Shown: piece after piece, positions 48,635-54,926 of the stretch
How positions within the stretch are numbered: position 1 is the stretch's first letter
Layout: each line of letters opens with the position of its first letter
Source of the DNA: a bacterium
Lineage (GTDB): Bacteria; Fidelibacterota; Fidelibacteria; Fidelibacterales; Fidelibacteraceae
Length of the DNA stretch: 64,000 nt
NCBI GenBank assembly: GCA_963676395.1
Contig: OY781066.1
Coordinates: 1,216,001-1,280,000, forward strand
Reading direction: 5' to 3'
Made by a program: the position numbers and the translations under genes
Notes under the pieces: model-generated
What the model was told of the DNA's origin: nothing
Seen by the model: the letters and a program-made list of their open reading frames with translations, nothing else
Database searches by the model: none

Positions 48635-49765
48635 TTACAGATATTTTTTTAGACTATCAACCTTATCTGTTTTTTCCCAGCTAAACTCATTGCGTCCAAA
48701 ATGACCATAAGCGGCTGTAGCTTGGTATATCGGTTTTCTCAGTTCCAGATGTTTGATAATATCTCGGGGAGTCAATGGAAATTCCTGGCGAATAATTTTG
48801 GCAAGTTCATCGTTCCCCAATTTTCCCGTGCCAAAGGTATCAATAAATAGAGATACCGGTTCGGCTTTTCCAATGGCATAGGCAAGCTGAACCTCCGCAC
48901 GCTCGCAAATTTCAGCAGCGACAAGATTTTTAGCAATATATCGCGCCATGTATGCTGCAGAGCGATCAACTTTAGTTGAATCTTTTCCAGAGAAAGCACC
49001 ACCGCCGTGACGGCCGAAACCGCCATAGGTGTCAACGATGATCTTTCGACCGGTAAGACCGGCGTCGGCAACGGGACCACCTTCGGTAAAAGCACCGGTT
49101 GGGTTAATATGGATCTTTGTATTGGCATCTATCATATCACCACAAACCGGTTGTATAACATGTTTTATGATGTCGGCATGTAAAATATCTTGCGTTACGG
49201 ACTTCTTGTGATGATTTGAAATAACGATCGCTTCGAGACGTACTGGTTTATTGTCAGCGTATTCTACCGTGACCTGTGATTTTCCGTCGGGAAACAGGTA
49301 ATTAAGCGTACCCTCTTTACGAACATCGGCTAATTTTCTACTGAGTTTATGAGCCAATGAGATAGGCAGTGGCATGAACTCCTTCGTTTCGTTACAGGCA
49401 TAGCCGAACATCATCCCTTGATCGCCGGCACCTTCGCGATTGACACCCATGCTGATATCGGGAGATTGTTCGGAGATAGATGTCAACACACCGCAATTGT
49501 TGCCGTTAAAGCCGACTTCACCATTATCATATCCAATAGAGGTAAGAGTTTGGCGGGCTATTTGTGGCACGTTAACATATTCGGCTTTGGTTGTCAGCTC
49601 ACCACCAACGATAACATAACCCGTTTTTATAAAACATTCGATTGCAACACGTGCTTCGGGATCTAAGGTTAAAACCGCATCCAATACGGCATCTGAGATT
49701 TGATCACATACCTTATCGGGATGTCCCTCTGTCACTGATTCTGATGTAAAAAATACTTTTTCCAT
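48635..49765 (-). CDS. metK: S-adenosylmethionine synthetase
   Basis: [26 protein letters not shown] and [11 protein letters not shown]...GGGAFSGKD. Start at MEKVFF (49765) after GAGGA. Confidence 0.98.
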
Positions 49766-49828: not shown

Positions 49829-49920
49829 GAGAGTTCGTTCATTTTTGACCTCTGCGGCCCACATCACTTTGCCACCGTGGCGTTACTCGGTTGGCGTTCC
49901 ATTCAAGGAACTCTTGATGT
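49829..49920 (-). ncRNA. SAM-I/IV-variant riboswitch
   Basis: Minus strand ACAUCA-AGAG-[UUCC..GGAA]-C-GCCAACCG..CGGUGGC-AAAG-UGAUGU gives P1, a short P2 and P3 with the SAM-clan core. A 3' hairpin and a possible GAGU/ACUC pseudoknot follow. Lies directly upstream of metK. Confidence 0.85.
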
Positions 49921-50117
49921 AAGGCAAGAAGATAGTAGCTTTTATTGCCGAAGGCAATAAAAAAGAGACAAGGGGTTAAAAATCAAGAAACAATATATCA
50001 AAGCTCAAGGACTGAGAGAAAATAAAAGTTAATCTTCGGCTCCCCTTAAAGAAATAACACTAAGAAAAAAATCTCGGGTTAAAGCCAAAGACTTTTGGTA
50101 TTTGTATTAATAATGAT

Positions 50118-50239
50118 CTTACAAATAGCTAAAATCACCGGCTTTTTAAAGAATAAATATATACATCGGTTAAAACGATATTTCCACTCATATCAGATCC
50201 ATCCCAGATTACTTGATTTCAGCCGGCATGCTGATCTTG
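50118..50239 (-). pseudogene. Decayed T9SS-type/FlgD-Ig C-terminal domain remnant
   Basis: Minus-strand translation QDQHAG*NQVIWDGSDMSGNIVLTDVYIYSLK, then AGDF after a frameshift. Confidence 0.6.
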
Positions 50240-50320
50240 GGCGTTCCGGTGTTTTAAATTCGATAATTAATAATTGCAGAGTTTTTTGATATGCCTGTAA
50301 CCGACTTCTAAAAAAACTCT

Positions 50321-50485
50321 TTGCATTTTAAGAGGTGCAAAGCTAAATTTACCAAGGATAAATGTTGAGGAAGTTTTATAAGTATATCGTTTTGTTAAAG
50401 GCAGTTGAAAATAGTTAAATCTTAGGACGCAGGCCTTTAGCATTGTAATAGTTTACCGAACGCTAAAGACCGTTCGGTTTTTTTT
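50321..50485 (+). promoter_or_regulatory. Promoter plus leader-peptide transcription attenuator upstream of uppP
   Basis: TTGCAT-N17-TAAATT promoter, leader ORF 50362-50418, mutually exclusive stems, and terminator ACCGAACG/CGTTCGGT with a T8 run 12 nt before the uppP start. Confidence 0.7.
50362..50418 (+). CDS. Putative 18-aa leader peptide MLRKFYKYIVLLKAVENS
   Basis: AAGGA then ATG just after the predicted transcription start. The ORF overlaps the first pairing segment of the attenuator. Confidence 0.5.
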   Translation: MLRKFYKYIVLLKAVENS

Positions 50486-50497
50486 AAAGGGCAATAA

Positions 50498-51301
50498 GTG
50501 GAATATTTAAAGATCATCATTCTTGCAATTGTACAGGGACTTACCGAATTTTTGCCGGTATCATCTTCGGGGCATCTGGCTATCGCCGAATATCTTTTAG
50601 GCATTGAGTCACCGGGTGTTACCTTGGAAGTGTTTTTACATTTTGGTACGTTTTTGTCTGTTCTTGTGATATTTTGGAAAGATATTGCAAAGATCATTAT
50701 TGCTTTTATTGCAAATTTTTGGAAAGTCTGGAAGTACCCGACTGTGATGAAAGAAAACGAAGACTTTGCCATGGGTATTTATATTATTCTTTCGATGATC
50801 CCTGCCGGTATAGTTGGATTTCTTTTCGAAGATCAGATTGCAGGGTTTTTTGATAATATTGTGATGGTTGGCATTGCACTGATTGTTACCGGGACGGTGT
50901 TGTTTCTTACTCAATGGGCTCAAAAGCAGGAAAAACCATTAAAGGGCTGGAAGGCTGTATTAATGGGTGTTTCACAAGCGATCGCTATTATACCGGGTAT
51001 TTCAAGATCAGGTTCAACCGTGTCGACGGGAATGTTCTTGGGGATGAATAGGGAAAAGGTTGCCAAATTTTCTTTTTTAATGGCGCTTCCCTTGATTTTT
51101 GGCGCTACGCTTATGAAAGCTAAAGAGGCTCTTGGTACTGAAGGTTTTGCCTGGGCCGGAATAATTATTGGTACTTTTACTGCATTCTTGTTTGGCTATT
51201 TTGCCGTGAAATGGTTGCTAAAAGCAATTATTAAAGGCAAGTTATATATGTTTGGCTTTTATTGTTTAGCCTTAGGGTTTCTTGCTATTATTTTTGGATA
51301 A
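50498..51301 (+). CDS. uppP: Undecaprenyl-diphosphate phosphatase (BacA)
   Basis: VQGLTEFLPVSSSGH and PGISRSGST. Confidence 0.97.
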   Translation: MEYLKIIILAIVQGLTEFLPVSSSGHLAIAEYLLGIESPGVTLEVFLHFGTFLSVLVIFWKDIAKIIIAFIANFWKVWKYPTVMKENEDFAMGIYIILSMIPAGIVGFLFEDQIAGFFDNIVMVGIALIVTGTVLFLTQWAQKQEKPLKGWKAVLMGVSQAIAIIPGISRSGSTVSTGMFLGMNREKVAKFSFLMALPLIFGATLMKAKEALGTEGFAWAGIIIGTFTAFLFGYFAVKWLLKAIIKGKLYMFGFYCLALGFLAIIFG

Positions 51302-51303
51302 TT

Positions 51304-52299
51304 ATGAGTTGGTTGACTGATCATGAACAAGCGGTTCGCAGAATTAAGAGTGGAAATTTAAGTCCACTGTATTTTCTGTACGGTAATGATTATTACCTTC
51401 GCGACTCTGCGCTTCAAGCCATTCGCGAAGCGATGAGCGCAAAAGGGATTGTTTATGAATATTCTTTTTATAATGCTGCTGAATTAGATGCAGGCGAATT
51501 GCAGAATCTATTGTTTGGAACATCTTTATTTCAGTCTACGAAATGCTCACTGATATCTAATGTTAAAGCATTATTGCCCTCGGCCAGGAAGATACTGAAT
51601 AATTATCTTAAAAATTTCGATCAGGGTAATGTTCTGGTGTTGTCCGCCGATGAGTATGAAGGAAGAAATGCTTTTTATAAGCGTATCCAAGAATCGGCAA
51701 CAACTTTAATGTGCAATTCACCTTTTGAAAATGAGGTTCCGGCTTGGATAAGACAATATGTTACAAAGCTGGATAGAACGATAGATCCACAAGCCGTTAA
51801 TGAACTTCTGCGATATGTGGGGGCGGATCTTGGTAAGCTGAGTAATGAGCTTGATAAGGTTCATATTTATTTACCAGAGGACAAAGTCATTGAACGGGAA
51901 GATATTCGCAAAGTTAGTGGTTTTTCAAAAACGTATTCTATGGATCAATTGCTTGATGCCTTGGGTAAGAAAAATAAGCGAGCGGCTATAGGGATATCTA
52001 AAAATTTATTGGAAAACGGTGCTTCTGAAGTATATCTTTTGATCGCTATCTATCAATTTCTTTGGAAACTTACTATGCTAAAAGATCCTCGATTGGTAAA
52101 TGACTCTGAGTTGGGAAAAAAAGTTCGGATATATCGTCCACGACAACTTGATGAACTGAAAGCCGTCGCTGTACGATATACTCTTGCTCAATTGAGAAGC
52201 GGAATTTCGGCTTTAGTAGCGGCAGACCGCCGGGTTAAAACCTCATCTTGCGATTCACTTTCAAACCTAATGATCACCCTTGAAGGAATACTTGCCTGA
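51304..52299 (+). CDS. holA: DNA polymerase III subunit delta
   Basis: PLYFLYG-x-D-x-Y, SLF, WI...VGADL-x-x-L-x-NELDK and D-x-x-VK. Start at ATG 51304. Confidence 0.88.
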   Translation: MSWLTDHEQAVRRIKSGNLSPLYFLYGNDYYLRDSALQAIREAMSAKGIVYEYSFYNAAELDAGELQNLLFGTSLFQSTKCSLISNVKALLPSARKILNNYLKNFDQGNVLVLSADEYEGRNAFYKRIQESATTLMCNSPFENEVPAWIRQYVTKLDRTIDPQAVNELLRYVGADLGKLSNELDKVHIYLPEDKVIEREDIRKVSGFSKTYSMDQLLDALGKKNKRAAIGISKNLLENGASEVYLLIAIYQFLWKLTMLKDPRLVNDSELGKKVRIYRPRQLDELKAVAVRYTLAQLRSGISALVAADRRVKTSSCDSLSNLMITLEGILA

Positions 52300-52300
52300 T

Positions 52301-52882
52301 ATGGAAAAAGAAAAACTTAAATATACTGATGAAGAACTGGTTAAGCGATTTCAACAAGGCGATCAACGCGCTTACATTGAGTTGGTTAAACGCTATAAAG
52401 ATCGTTTGTTGAACTTTGTTTTTCGTTATTTAAATTCTTATGAACAATCTGAAGATGTTGTTCAGGATACCTTAATGAAGCTGTACACATCGGCGCATAT
52501 GTATCGTGAAATAGCAAAATTTTCTACCTGGATATTTACTATTGCCGCCAATTTGGCGAAATCCGAATTGCGACGACAAAAAAGAAGGCGTGTCATATCT
52601 ATCCATAGCATGGGCTTTGACGATAAAGAATATGAGATTCCTTCGGAAGATTATAGTCCGGAGAAAGAAACAACATCAAATTATGGAGAAAAACAGATCC
52701 AACAGGCTATTGATACTTTACCGGATCAGTTTAAAACAGTGATAATCTTACGAGAGGTTCAACAACTATCATATGAAGAGATCTCCCAAATATTGGGTAT
52801 TTCAATAGGGACGGTAAAAAGTAGGATTAATAGAGGTCGATTAAGATTGCAAAAAATGTTAAAAGAATTAAAGGAACAATAA
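52301..52882 (+). CDS. ECF RNA polymerase sigma factor
   Basis: DEELV...GD-x-x-AY, EDVVQD, FSTWIFTIA-x-N and SYEEI...GTVKSRINRGR. Confidence 0.95.
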   Translation: MEKEKLKYTDEELVKRFQQGDQRAYIELVKRYKDRLLNFVFRYLNSYEQSEDVVQDTLMKLYTSAHMYREIAKFSTWIFTIAANLAKSELRRQKRRRVISIHSMGFDDKEYEIPSEDYSPEKETTSNYGEKQIQQAIDTLPDQFKTVIILREVQQLSYEEISQILGISIGTVKSRINRGRLRLQKMLKELKEQ

Positions 52883-52958: not shown

Positions 52959-53501
52959 ATGGATTGTTATAGTTTTGATAAGATCATGTCTGATTATATC
53001 GATGCTAGTCTGAGCGTAAAACAGAGACAGGAAGCGGATCAACATTTAAGCGTATGTAGTCGCTGCTCAGCTAAGCTTGTTGATATGAAAAGTATACTCA
53101 CAGGATTGAGGGCACTTCCTCAAGCAAAGACAAGCAACGATTTCGAGTCCAAGCTTATGGATCGGATTGCCAATGAAAAAGAGCCGGGAGAAAGTCGTTT
53201 TATCCGCGTTTTTCAGGATTATTCACGACCGATTTCTGTGGTAGCTGCTGTTTTTCTCTTGGTGGCGACATCGATCTTTGTTTACACATCGGTTGTTATC
53301 CCCAATGCAAATGGTTCTTTGCCGACAGCGGAGATAAGATCAACCGCACCTGTAAATACCATGCAGGCACCCATGAATGTTGCAGCTTCAGCTCAGTCGG
53401 CGATGGCAAAGACAAAGTCTGAATCTGTGGTTCCGGATTCCAATAAAACGGAGCTTCCCAATTATAATCAGCAGATTATGATGGTAAATGAGAATAAATA
53501 A
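52959..53501 (+). CDS. Zinc-binding (zf-HC2/ZAS) anti-sigma factor
   Basis: M-x-C...YID...H-x-x-x-C-x-x-C with a single TM helix, downstream of the ECF sigma. Confidence 0.9.
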   Translation: MDCYSFDKIMSDYIDASLSVKQRQEADQHLSVCSRCSAKLVDMKSILTGLRALPQAKTSNDFESKLMDRIANEKEPGESRFIRVFQDYSRPISVVAAVFLLVATSIFVYTSVVIPNANGSLPTAEIRSTAPVNTMQAPMNVAASAQSAMAKTKSESVVPDSNKTELPNYNQQIMMVNENK

Positions 53502-53561
53502 TTTGCAATTGAGGAATTTATCCTTATATTTGCCCGCAATTAAAAGAGCGGAGGAACAAAA

Positions 53562-53753
53562 ATGGCAAGACCACAATCATTCGGAGCTAAGATAGCTAAC
53601 CGTGAAAAGGAAGGTAATACCTGTCCCACATGCGGAGAACAGATTTCATATGTTAAGCATTATGCAAGCGTAAAAACTGCTGCTGACGGTACTAAATTTA
53701 AACAAAAAGTTGTTGGTATCTGCGGTTGCAATAAAAAAGAATATATGGGCTAG
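53562..53753 (+). CDS. Small basic four-Cys protein, DUF4295/bL38-like candidate
   Basis: Own promoter, GGAGG SD and terminator, with CPTC...CGC. The family call is by eye. Confidence 0.7.
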   Translation: MARPQSFGAKIANREKEGNTCPTCGEQISYVKHYASVKTAADGTKFKQKVVGICGCNKKEYMG

Positions 53754-53775
53754 AGCTAAGCTTTTATAAAGATTG

Positions 53776-53800
53776 AACCCCGGCTGTCCGGGGTTTTTTT
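53776..53800 (+). terminator. Intrinsic terminator
   Basis: AACCCCGG-CTGT-CCGGGGTT followed by a T-run. Confidence 0.88.
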
Positions 53801-53981
53801 ATGCGATCAATTTTTAAGTAGAACCTACGTTGTACTTTGTATATCTGTTAATCAGCGATTACACATAAGGCACTTTTCACTTTTACAAGCATTTGTCTTT
53901 CACTATATTAATTAGTCTTTAAAGTATTTTAAATTTACAAGCGGGTATAAAAAGTACCAAAAATTGCAGAAGGAGATAGCG

Positions 53982-54926
53982 ATGAAAAAAATTGTTTTAA
54001 TATTATTATCTTTAATTTTGACAGCTTTGTTGCTTAGTGGTTGTTTTTTGTTTCCAGATGGTGGCAAACGTATAGATGGTATGGTTTTTCTTGAAGGTGG
54101 CGTTTTTACCATGGGAGATGTATGGGATGGTGGAGATACCTTAAGAGTAACGGTATCTTCATTCTATATTGGTGAAAAAGAAGTTCAGATCCATGAAATA
54201 TTGGATTGGCTTAAAGATGAAAATGTCCCGGCAAATGGTGAGATTGACGGCGTTGAAGTTGTAGATTTTGGTAATAATTCATGCTATAATTTTGATGGAA
54301 CAATTTATACTTTTAACTCAAACGATTATTTTAAATCTGAAATGGCCGCAGCAGGAGAGATTTCTTGGGTGGGCGCTTGCTATTTTTGTAATTGGAAATC
54401 AAAACAGGACGGTCGTGATACGGTCTATACTATTAACGGGTCAACAGTAACGGCTGATTTTTTAAAAAACGGTTATCGATTACCCACAGAAGCTGAATGG
54501 GAATATGCGGCAAGAGCCGGAGGCTCAAAAGATAATAAATATGCAGGAACCAATGATGTTGCAGAGCTAATAAATTATGCTTGGTATGATCCAAACTCGG
54601 AAGACTTGGGTACTCAACACGCAAATTATGGTGTTCATGTTCCGGGTGAGAAACTTGATAATGGTGTTGGTATATATGATATGTCAGGTAATTTATTTGA
54701 ATATGTTTGGGATTGGTATGCACGCTTTCCCGCAAGTACACAGCTGAACTATACCGGTCCGATAACAAAACCTCTATTGGCGTTCAAGGTTATAAAGGGA
54801 GGTGGCTGGTGTTATAGTAGTGGATCTCAAACGGTATATTATCGCGGTAATTTAACTGTTTCAACCTTATCCGGGGCCATTATTGGATTCCGCTTAGCAT
54901 GTTCTGCGTGGGATATTGACAACTAA
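53982..54926 (+). CDS. FGE-sulfatase (SUMF1/GldK-like) domain lipoprotein
   Basis: Lipobox LSGC, GGVFTMG, YRLPTEAEWEYAAR, YDMSGN-x-x-E and GFRL. Start at MKKIV (53982). Confidence 0.9.
   Translation: MKKIVLILLSLILTALLLSGCFLFPDGGKRIDGMVFLEGGVFTMGDVWDGGDTLRVTVSSFYIGEKEVQIHEILDWLKDENVPANGEIDGVEVVDFGNNSCYNFDGTIYTFNSNDYFKSEMAAAGEISWVGACYFCNWKSKQDGRDTVYTINGSTVTADFLKNGYRLPTEAEWEYAARAGGSKDNKYAGTNDVAELINYAWYDPNSEDLGTQHANYGVHVPGEKLDNGVGIYDMSGNLFEYVWDWYARFPASTQLNYTGPITKPLLAFKVIKGGGWCYSSGSQTVYYRGNLTVSTLSGAIIGFRLACSAWDIDN

Follow-up and report, generated by a model that had tools for sequence, protein, structure and literature searches.

The 5′ leader of the operon formed by uppP, a holA-like gene, and an extracytoplasmic function (ECF) sigma factor gene, located in the 64,000-nt stretch of contig OY781066.1 analyzed here (the window), is probably a cis-acting transcription attenuator and one of two paralogous copies in the genome. 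The host genome is a single 2.34-Mb contig from the phylum named Candidatus Neomarinimicrobiota, Marinimicrobia, or Fidelibacterota. The leader RNA is assigned to positions 50350–50485 of the window (+ strand; contig 1266350–1266485) from the extent of its covariance-model matches (119.4 bits with model R1 and 100.9 bits with model R2, both described below). Its conserved and mutually exclusive 1:2, 2:3, and 3:4 pairings are the grounds for assigning it as an attenuator. A first-pass annotation of the stretch had proposed a terminator/antiterminator/anti-antiterminator leader acting in cis directly before uppP-holA-ECF sigma, which is supported by the pairings and their conservation.

Elements and pairings of the leader

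All elements lie on the + strand. A promoter read directly from the sequence consists of TTGCAT (50321–50326), a 17-nt spacer, and TAAATT (50344–50349). It is preceded by an A-tract (50310–50316), in which AAA(AAA) is nearly invariant across the uppP leader alignment and which may act like an UP element. The hexamers match the sigma-70 consensus at 7 of 12 positions by hand count, and the pair is not among the sites listed by a consensus promoter scan of the region. Among the 16 relatives with upstream sequence, the boxes TTGC.T and TAAATT hardly vary. Transcription would begin a few bases past TAAATT, near 50355, and the first ~40 nt of the RNA would be unstructured and carry Shine–Dalgarno (SD)-like boxes, namely AAGGA (50354–50358) and GAGGAAG (50367–50373). 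AAGGA ends 3 nt before the ATG at 50362 of an 18-codon open reading frame (ORF), MLRKFYKYIVLLKAVENS, which runs to the TAA at 50416–50418 and passes through segment 1 in the host genome. This ORF is not conserved in the relatives.

Segment 1 (50388–50402), the core of which (GTTAAAGG) is invariant across the leader family, is the 5′ strand of hairpin P1, the anti-antiterminator. In the 1:2 pairing, TGTTAAAGGC (50393–50402) is complementary to GCCTTTAGCA (50433–50442). The loop of P1 starts with a TTGAAAA motif (50405–50411), of which TTGA is found in 42 of 43 leaders and whose likeness to BoxA is weak here. Segment 2 (50433–50447) pairs alternatively with segment 1 in P1 or with segment 3 in the antiterminator hairpin (50435–50468), where CTTTAGC (50435–50441) faces GCTAAAG (50462–50468) and GTAA faces TTAC. 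The intrinsic terminator (50455–50485), formed by segments 3 and 4, has an 8-bp stem, ACCGAACG/CGTTCGGT (50455–50462/50471–50478), an 8-nt loop, and a U8 tail (T8 at 50478–50485). Only 12 nt lie between the T-run and the GTG start of uppP at 50498, too little space for a second promoter between the terminator and uppP. The promoter, the SD sequence, the 18-codon ORF, the three pairings, and the T8 run had all been placed at these positions by the first-pass annotation, and direct reading of the sequence confirmed every one of them.

In the ViennaRNA fold of 50355–50490, both the minimum free energy (MFE) structure and the centroid consist of the 1:2 hairpin and the terminator. The terminator hairpin (8 pairs) is the best terminator-like site of a consensus scan. 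The antiterminator at 50435–50468 is the MFE structure of its own sub-region at −8.7 kcal/mol (z = −3.1, p = 0.01, 200 dinucleotide shuffles). The mean energies in the uppP leaders are −16.5, −7.9, and −10.3 kcal/mol for P1, the antiterminator, and the terminator, respectively. Being both the first hairpin to form and the strongest, P1 would make termination the default outcome.

The proposed mechanism is as follows. Pairing of segment 1 with segment 2 would give the stable P1 and leave segments 3 and 4 free to form the terminator in front of the uppP start. If segment 1 were occupied during synthesis of the 30-nt loop, segment 2 would pair with segment 3 to form the antiterminator, and transcription would read through into uppP. 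In our reading, read-through needs a factor on segment 1; a ribosome or 30S subunit docked on the RNA, a complex of Nus factors with BoxA, or another protein may play this part.

Conservation and the paralogous leader family

UppP was located in 38 of 41 related genomes, and the uppP leaders of 17 genomes of the host genus (UppP 73–89% identical) were aligned. The 190 nt upstream of uppP have a mean column identity of 75% across these 17 genomes. The A-tract, TTGC.T, TAAATT, AGGATAAA, TTGTTAAAGGC, TTGAAAA, GCCTTT, and the whole terminator with T8 are invariant or nearly so. The start position of uppP is common to the relatives, and the region farther upstream of the leader is unrelated from genome to genome. 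The covariance model R1 was built from 16 uppP leaders, and R2 is the family model; the matches of these models to the uppP copies are circular, and the models give one top match per locus at the uppP leader. The R1 search placed the ~135-nt leader before uppP in 18 of the 21 other genomes of the host genus. Before uppP in other genera of the family, such a leader is absent according to the alignment and to the R1 and R2 searches.

Full-length R1 matches of 42–52 bits were also found at non-uppP loci when 151 genomes of the phylum were searched. These paralogous leaders directly precede a PorV-like gene in genera g1 (the host genus), g2, and g4, and folP in one genome of genus g3 (43 bits with R1). 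The matches to the PorV-gene leaders under R1 (29.5–52 bits) are independent of model building, and their R2 scores in g1, g2, and g4 are 65–96 bits. The PorV-like protein has ~450 residues, a signal peptide, and Pfam matches to PorV (8.4e-31) and also to Toluene_X; its gene is present in 147 of the 151 genomes. With R2, at least two matches are found in 18 of 22 g1 genomes, normally one each before uppP and the PorV-like gene, and the g2 and g4 genomes have one match each. The uppP leader appears to have arisen in this genus by duplication of the PorV-gene leader, the older of the two.

The family shares the motif GUUA(A/U)AG(G/A), followed after 3–5 nt by UUGA, with an SD-like box 15–32 nt upstream, and the window leader fits this description. 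Apart from one seemingly intragenic site, the two leaders are the only places in the host genome where the motif GTTAAAGGNNNTTGA is found. The host PorV-gene leader scores 29.5 bits with R1 (filters off) and 79 bits with R2. Its segment 1 is the same as in the uppP leader, whereas the sequence of the terminator stem differs. The g1 PorV-gene leaders, that of the host included, have a perfect 9-bp antiterminator, CUUAUAACG/CGUUAUAAG.

Covariation was counted in a 44-row alignment fitted to the model, one row of which is a spurious match. P1 and the terminator are paired in 92.8% of the cells, compared with 84.5% for column shuffles and 30–44% for slid partners, and 12 of the 22 pairs have changes on both sides. 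The closing pair of P1 is CG in 18 rows, UA in 18, and AU in 5; the covarying pairs of the terminator stem across the paralogues are CG:26 / UA:18 and AU:23 / GC:18. An unfitted MAFFT alignment of the uppP leaders alone also contains two compensatory basal pairs of P1 (CG:7 / UA:6 and GC:10 / AU:3). Both the 1:2 hairpin and the terminator are supported by compensatory changes of this kind. When the first-pass annotation is compared with the alignment of the relatives' uppP leaders, the stems it had expected to be conserved are conserved, with compensatory changes, and the upstream ORF is not.

The antiterminator pairing lay outside the covariance model. It is paired in 91.9% of the cells, compared with 20–48% for slid partners, and it is both complementary and the MFE structure of its sub-region in 38 of 43 leaders, being preserved in paralogues of differing sequence. 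Its mean z against dinucleotide shuffles is −2.1 in the uppP leaders (12 of 18 at p ≤ 0.05) and −4.1 in the g1 PorV-gene leaders (18 of 18).

Some further observations on the PorV-gene leaders should be noted. The host copy lies on the − strand of the contig at 2048242–2048376 (locus L077, 2918–3052), has its own TTGACA promoter, and precedes the gene of a 466-residue PorV/PorQ-family outer-membrane protein, itself located after nrdR. An internal promoter using TTGACA in the PorV-gene leaders was considered and dropped, as no −10 box was read at the right distance. In the five g2 PorV-gene leaders (L067–L070 and L072), P1 and the terminator are kept, and ACGUUCG of segment 1 could pair with CGAACGU of the 5′ strand of the terminator. 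The folP leader of g3 (L071, 1501–1634) is followed by folP and then by a gene whose product has, judged from the sequence, a diadenylate cyclase-like N terminus. In many other families, the region upstream of the PorV-like gene has, by eye, an AGGAG-type 5′ box and a terminator just before the ribosome-binding site (RBS). Those of families f9, f12, and f14 (L129–L132, L136, L139, and L141) share AUGGAG(U/A)GCCUAUCGA, a 4-nt loop, and UUG(G/A)UA(G/A), which can fold as a 6–7-bp hairpin with a GNRA-like loop, followed by a GAAGAAA/UUUCUUC hairpin and then a terminator. By the same inspection, these regions may represent a diverged version of the family leader.

As for other members, R2 over 41 genomes gave just one extra match (34 bits), and a third member of the regulon was not adopted. 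Two 30-bit R1 matches in one relative were rejected as ordinary gene-end terminators, and a 22-bit R1 match in the host genome was rejected because it lies inside an ORF. None of the best 80 loci related to the PorV-gene leader is titled as another phylum. Among at least 120 PorV-like homologues, the taxon-bearing names are Marinimicrobia or Fidelibacterota except for one Simkaniaceae and one plain "bacterium".

The proposed occupant of segment 1

The first-pass annotation had read the leader as a classical leader-peptide attenuator, in which a ribosome stalled on the 18-codon ORF by codon starvation or an antibiotic frees segment 2. The 1:2, 2:3, 3:4 architecture is indeed that of the trp and his leaders, and the host ORF, with AAGGA 3 nt before its ATG, spans segment 1. 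A start codon (ATG, GTG, or TTG) lies 3–11 nt past an SD-like 4-mer in 15 of the 18 uppP leaders. However, the other three have no SD-plus-start at all, and the ORFs that are present vary from 1 to 40 or more codons in three frames, seven leaders having ATG-TGA (one codon). Relative to segment 1, their stops are scattered between −29 and +67, the farthest lying past the terminator, and just 9 of the 18 leaders have an ORF that extends to segment 1. The ATG of the host ORF is missing at that position in the closest relative (UppP 89% identical). An ORF of this type occurs in none of the 25 paralogous leaders (PorV-like gene and folP), which have the same architecture, and the peptides of the uppP leaders contain neither a regulatory codon run nor a conserved stalling motif. 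The invariant nucleotides of segment 1 fall in all three reading frames, which indicates a constraint on the RNA and not on coding. With only half of the uppP leaders having an ORF that reaches segment 1, no ORF in the paralogues, and no shared peptide, the leader peptide was abandoned as the sensor; from these comparisons, a sensed peptide appears unlikely, and the classical mechanism as a whole is highly improbable. What is kept of the ribosome that had been supposed to stall over segment 1 is an occupant of segment 1, which is plausible and possibly a ribosome, while the conserved peptide being read is given up.

A Nus-factor (BoxA) switch would have NusB/S10 bind a motif running from the end of segment 1 into the loop, either blocking P1 or bypassing the terminator. 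In five genomes of the lineage, G[AU]U[CA]UUUGAAAA follows a hairpin at two places of the rRNA operons, the leader and the 16S–23S spacer, and the host encodes NusB (113 bits) and a SuhB-like inositol monophosphatase (Inositol_P, 231.6 bits). In the g2 PorV-gene leaders, the motif at the same place reaches 13.2 bits with the position weight matrix (PWM) of the lineage rRNA BoxA, the best of the family (genome fraction 1.8e-5). The loop of the g3 folP leader, GTTCTTTAAAA, exactly fits the gamma-proteobacterial consensus GYTCTTTAANA, as given in the consulted part of PMC5725501, and scores 7.2 bits with the lineage PWM. BoxA elements control non-rRNA genes according to the same paper, and intrinsic termination can be suppressed in vitro by an rrn antitermination complex that includes SuhB, according to the part of PMC6614801 that was consulted. 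In the uppP leaders, however, only UUGAAAA is matched (−9.3 to 2.3 bits, top 0.1–2% of genome positions), and the g1 PorV-gene leaders score −8.5 to 2.9 bits. The window motif ranks 7822 among 4.67 million positions, with many equal or better sites being intragenic, and the leader motif does not follow the variants of the rRNA BoxA from genus to genus. The idea was reached after several others, so that a chance resemblance is a real risk, and we consider a BoxA switch quite unlikely.

Two further explanations were considered. The element could be an independent trans-acting small RNA with its own promoter and terminator, uppP being expressed by leakage through the terminator only. The discrete promoter, the strong terminator, the ~130-nt product, the conserved single-stranded 5′ region, and the U-tail would suit such an RNA. 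On the other hand, the element lies 12–25 nt before the RBS on the same strand in three contexts (uppP, the PorV-like gene, and folP), which leave no room for a second promoter, and complementarity between the terminator loop and segment 2 is maintained, a feature that a plain small-RNA terminator does not need. An independent small RNA is therefore most doubtful, while the terminated leader may have an additional role in trans. Alternatively, the hairpins could be a fixed dampener that gives constant partial termination or mRNA stabilization in response to no signal. In favor of this, the leader has no evident ligand-type aptamer, conservation outside the helices is confined to short motifs, and the downstream genes are housekeeping ones. 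Yet the antiterminator, the invariant segment 1, and the SD-like box at a fixed distance are kept in the paralogues, which is hard to explain without switching, and a fixed dampener is very unlikely.

Returning to an attenuator with a factor on segment 1, the position and sequence of this segment should be noted. Conservation goes past the needs of the helix, since GUUA(A/U)AG(G/A) of segment 1 is fixed while its partner varies. Of the 43 leaders, 42 have an SD-like 4-mer 15–32 nt ahead of segment 1, compared with ~6.5 expected from shuffles, and the distance is 22–27 nt in the leaders inspected individually. The 3′ tail of the 16S rRNA, CACCUCCUUUCUA (also as CCUCCUUUCU), is canonical, and the host uses SD-type ribosome-binding sites. 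Judging from textbook footprints, a 30S subunit docked at the SD-like box would mask the 5′ strand of P1 over its basal half. The leading, though tentative, candidate for the occupant is a ribosome or 30S subunit recruited by the SD-like box independently of any peptide, which would couple the growth-related envelope genes to the capacity for translation. Next, and likewise held only loosely, come factors that bind RNA sequence-specifically at the invariant GUUAAAGG...UUGA, NusB/S10 bound to the BoxA-like motif being one of them. uppP, holA, and the PorV-like gene are growth-related, so that a factor present during growth would fit the default-off design. In a further-reaching proposal, the leader family would be a growth-coupled antitermination switch in which a translation component (30S or NusB/S10) must occupy segment 1, which we regard as unlikely; if it were true, synthesis of the PorV-like protein, UppP, the holA product, and the ECF sigma factor would be tied directly to the availability of ribosomes or Nus factors.

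Several other candidates were considered for segment 1 and its surroundings. Titration of CsrA by GGA boxes was discarded, as the host genome has no CsrA (PF02599). A small-molecule riboswitch is unlikely because neither the sequence nor the length of the P1 loop is constant and no consensus structure arises in the nascent RNA until segment 2 has been synthesized. The UUG of UUGA was rejected as a start codon after AAAGG by the reasoning that it would lie too close to the site of pairing with the 16S tail. Motif searches of the host genome, in which the sites were not mapped to genes, gave no obvious partner for a trans RNA complementary to segment 1.

The following points weigh against the attenuator as proposed here. 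On single-sequence evidence, the window leader does not beat chance: the z-score of the leader fold is −0.44, 65 of 200 shuffles fold equally well, and 5 terminator-like sites were found in the 4.1 kb scanned versus 3.5 expected. It is because of conservation that the leader stands above chance. The fold predicted for the first-pass scheme was obtained in part, namely P1 and the terminator as the MFE structure of the unblocked leader; with segment 1 blocked, the full-length MFE structure of the host leader retains the terminator, so that kinetic control must be assumed. The alignment used for covariation was fitted to the structure being tested, and most double changes separate the two paralogue groups and thus represent few events. 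The antiterminator has a double-sided change in only 1 of its 9 pairs and is found in none of the five g2 leaders. Transcription start, termination, and read-through are all inferred from the sequence. A search of sequencing runs for window positions 50200–51000 listed none recorded as RNA; one run of unclassified kind, in the form of contigs, contains the region. Regarding the occupant, ribosome docking leaves the invariant sequence of segment 1 unexplained, and all 25 non-uppP leaders are without a start codon after the SD-like box, while the likeness to BoxA is weak in the window (PWM 1.1 bits versus 19.7–22.5 bits for the rRNA BoxA). With these points taken into account, the sequence comparisons indicate that the leader is a real, conserved transcription attenuator of a variant absent from Rfam, and the mechanism as a whole is favored with moderate confidence.

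Known leader systems and the surrounding genes

The leader was compared with known systems. trpL, hisL, and pheL are leader-peptide attenuators of amino-acid operons. They likewise have four segments, 1:2, 2:3, and 3:4 pairings, and an intrinsic terminator just before the first gene, and in the window an SD-led short ORF overlaps segment 1 as in these leaders. Unlike them, the uppP leaders have no conserved peptide, frame, stop, or regulatory codons, the paralogues are ORF-less, and there is no match to an Rfam leader. The PyrR-controlled pyr leaders of Bacillus have a protein-dependent anti-antiterminator, an antiterminator, and a terminator. The three mutually exclusive hairpins are similar, and the invariant strand of the first hairpin suggests a bound factor here too, whereas P1, and not the antiterminator as expected of the PyrR type when no protein is bound, is the most stable hairpin in the present leaders (−16.5 kcal/mol against −7.9 for the antiterminator); a factor would consequently have to prevent P1 and not stabilize it. 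STAB-SD sequences are 5′ stabilizers of Gram-positive mRNAs and resemble the 5′ SD-like sequence without a following start codon seen in 25 of the 25 non-uppP leaders. STAB-SD stabilizes mRNA, whereas the family leaders are proposed to serve antitermination, a role for which we know of no description of STAB-SD. The BoxA/Nus leaders of rRNA operons and of the suhB 5′ untranslated region (UTR) are alike in that a BoxA-like motif is fixed in the g2 and g3 members and the Nus genes are present, and unlike in that the match is weak in the window leader. According to the part of PMC5725501 consulted, the suhB 5′ UTR also differs in working through translation inhibition and Rho, without an intrinsic terminator or an alternative hairpin.

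The rRNA operon of the host (L236, 3050–3560 and 1180–1230, − strand) has four or five tandem promoter modules before the 16S gene. Both its leader and its spacer, in the latter downstream of tRNA-Ile/tRNA-Ala, contain a hairpin and then GAUAUUUGAAAA(U/A)..GGGUG, the arrangement of a classical boxB–boxA pair.

At permissive thresholds, Rfam gave no + strand match over 50341–50490 at E ≤ 10, while a SAM-I/IV riboswitch nearby served as the positive control; a known riboswitch on the leader, for which a check had been advised, was thus not matched. The remark of the first-pass annotation that no attenuator is described for uppP agrees with the literature searched, in which no published description was found, the consulted part of PMC10216114 mentioning the glmS ribozyme only. 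More broadly, no RNA-level control of uppP was found in the literature as judged from titles and from that part of PMC10216114, and no paper on a leader element of this kind was found, mostly from titles, in the literature on uppP, porV, or Marinimicrobia leader elements.

The downstream genes should be considered in relation to this leader. uppP (bacA), with its RBS AAAGGG, occupies 50486–51301 on the + strand and encodes a protein that matches Pfam BacA with E = 8.9e-79. Two nucleotides downstream in the ORF list is the holA-like gene (51304–52299, +) for the delta subunit of DNA polymerase III, the product of which matches DNA_pol3_delta_C weakly and under the curated cut-off (E = 1.2e-4). 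The ECF sigma factor gene (52298–52882, +; Sigma70_r2, Sigma70_r4_2, and Sigma70_ECF) overlaps the end of holA. UppP recycles the lipid carrier of cell-wall and envelope polymer synthesis, and holA is an essential replication gene. The operon would thus stand behind a default-off terminator, with a switch common to the near-universal PorV-like gene, which points to a common signal co-ordinating envelope genes in an uncultured phylum. Among attenuators without a known sensor, the leader is a well-defined candidate, and its small size and clearly delimited segments make it amenable to in vitro transcription and reporter tests.

Past the ECF sigma factor gene, the region 52959–54926 of the window encodes a zf-HC2 anti-sigma factor, a 63-residue ORF product that has CxxC pairs and matches no Pfam family, and a lipoprotein-like protein with an FGE-sulfatase domain (3.8e-31). 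These genes may be the ECF sigma factor's own module. On the other side of the leader, metK lies upstream in divergent orientation. The SAM-I/IV riboswitch is found on the − strand at 49831–49925, upstream of metK, with 54.6 bits against a gathering score of 41.1. The longest metK ORF (GTG at 49867) overlaps this riboswitch, so that the true start of metK is probably the ATG near 49765 (MEKVFF...).

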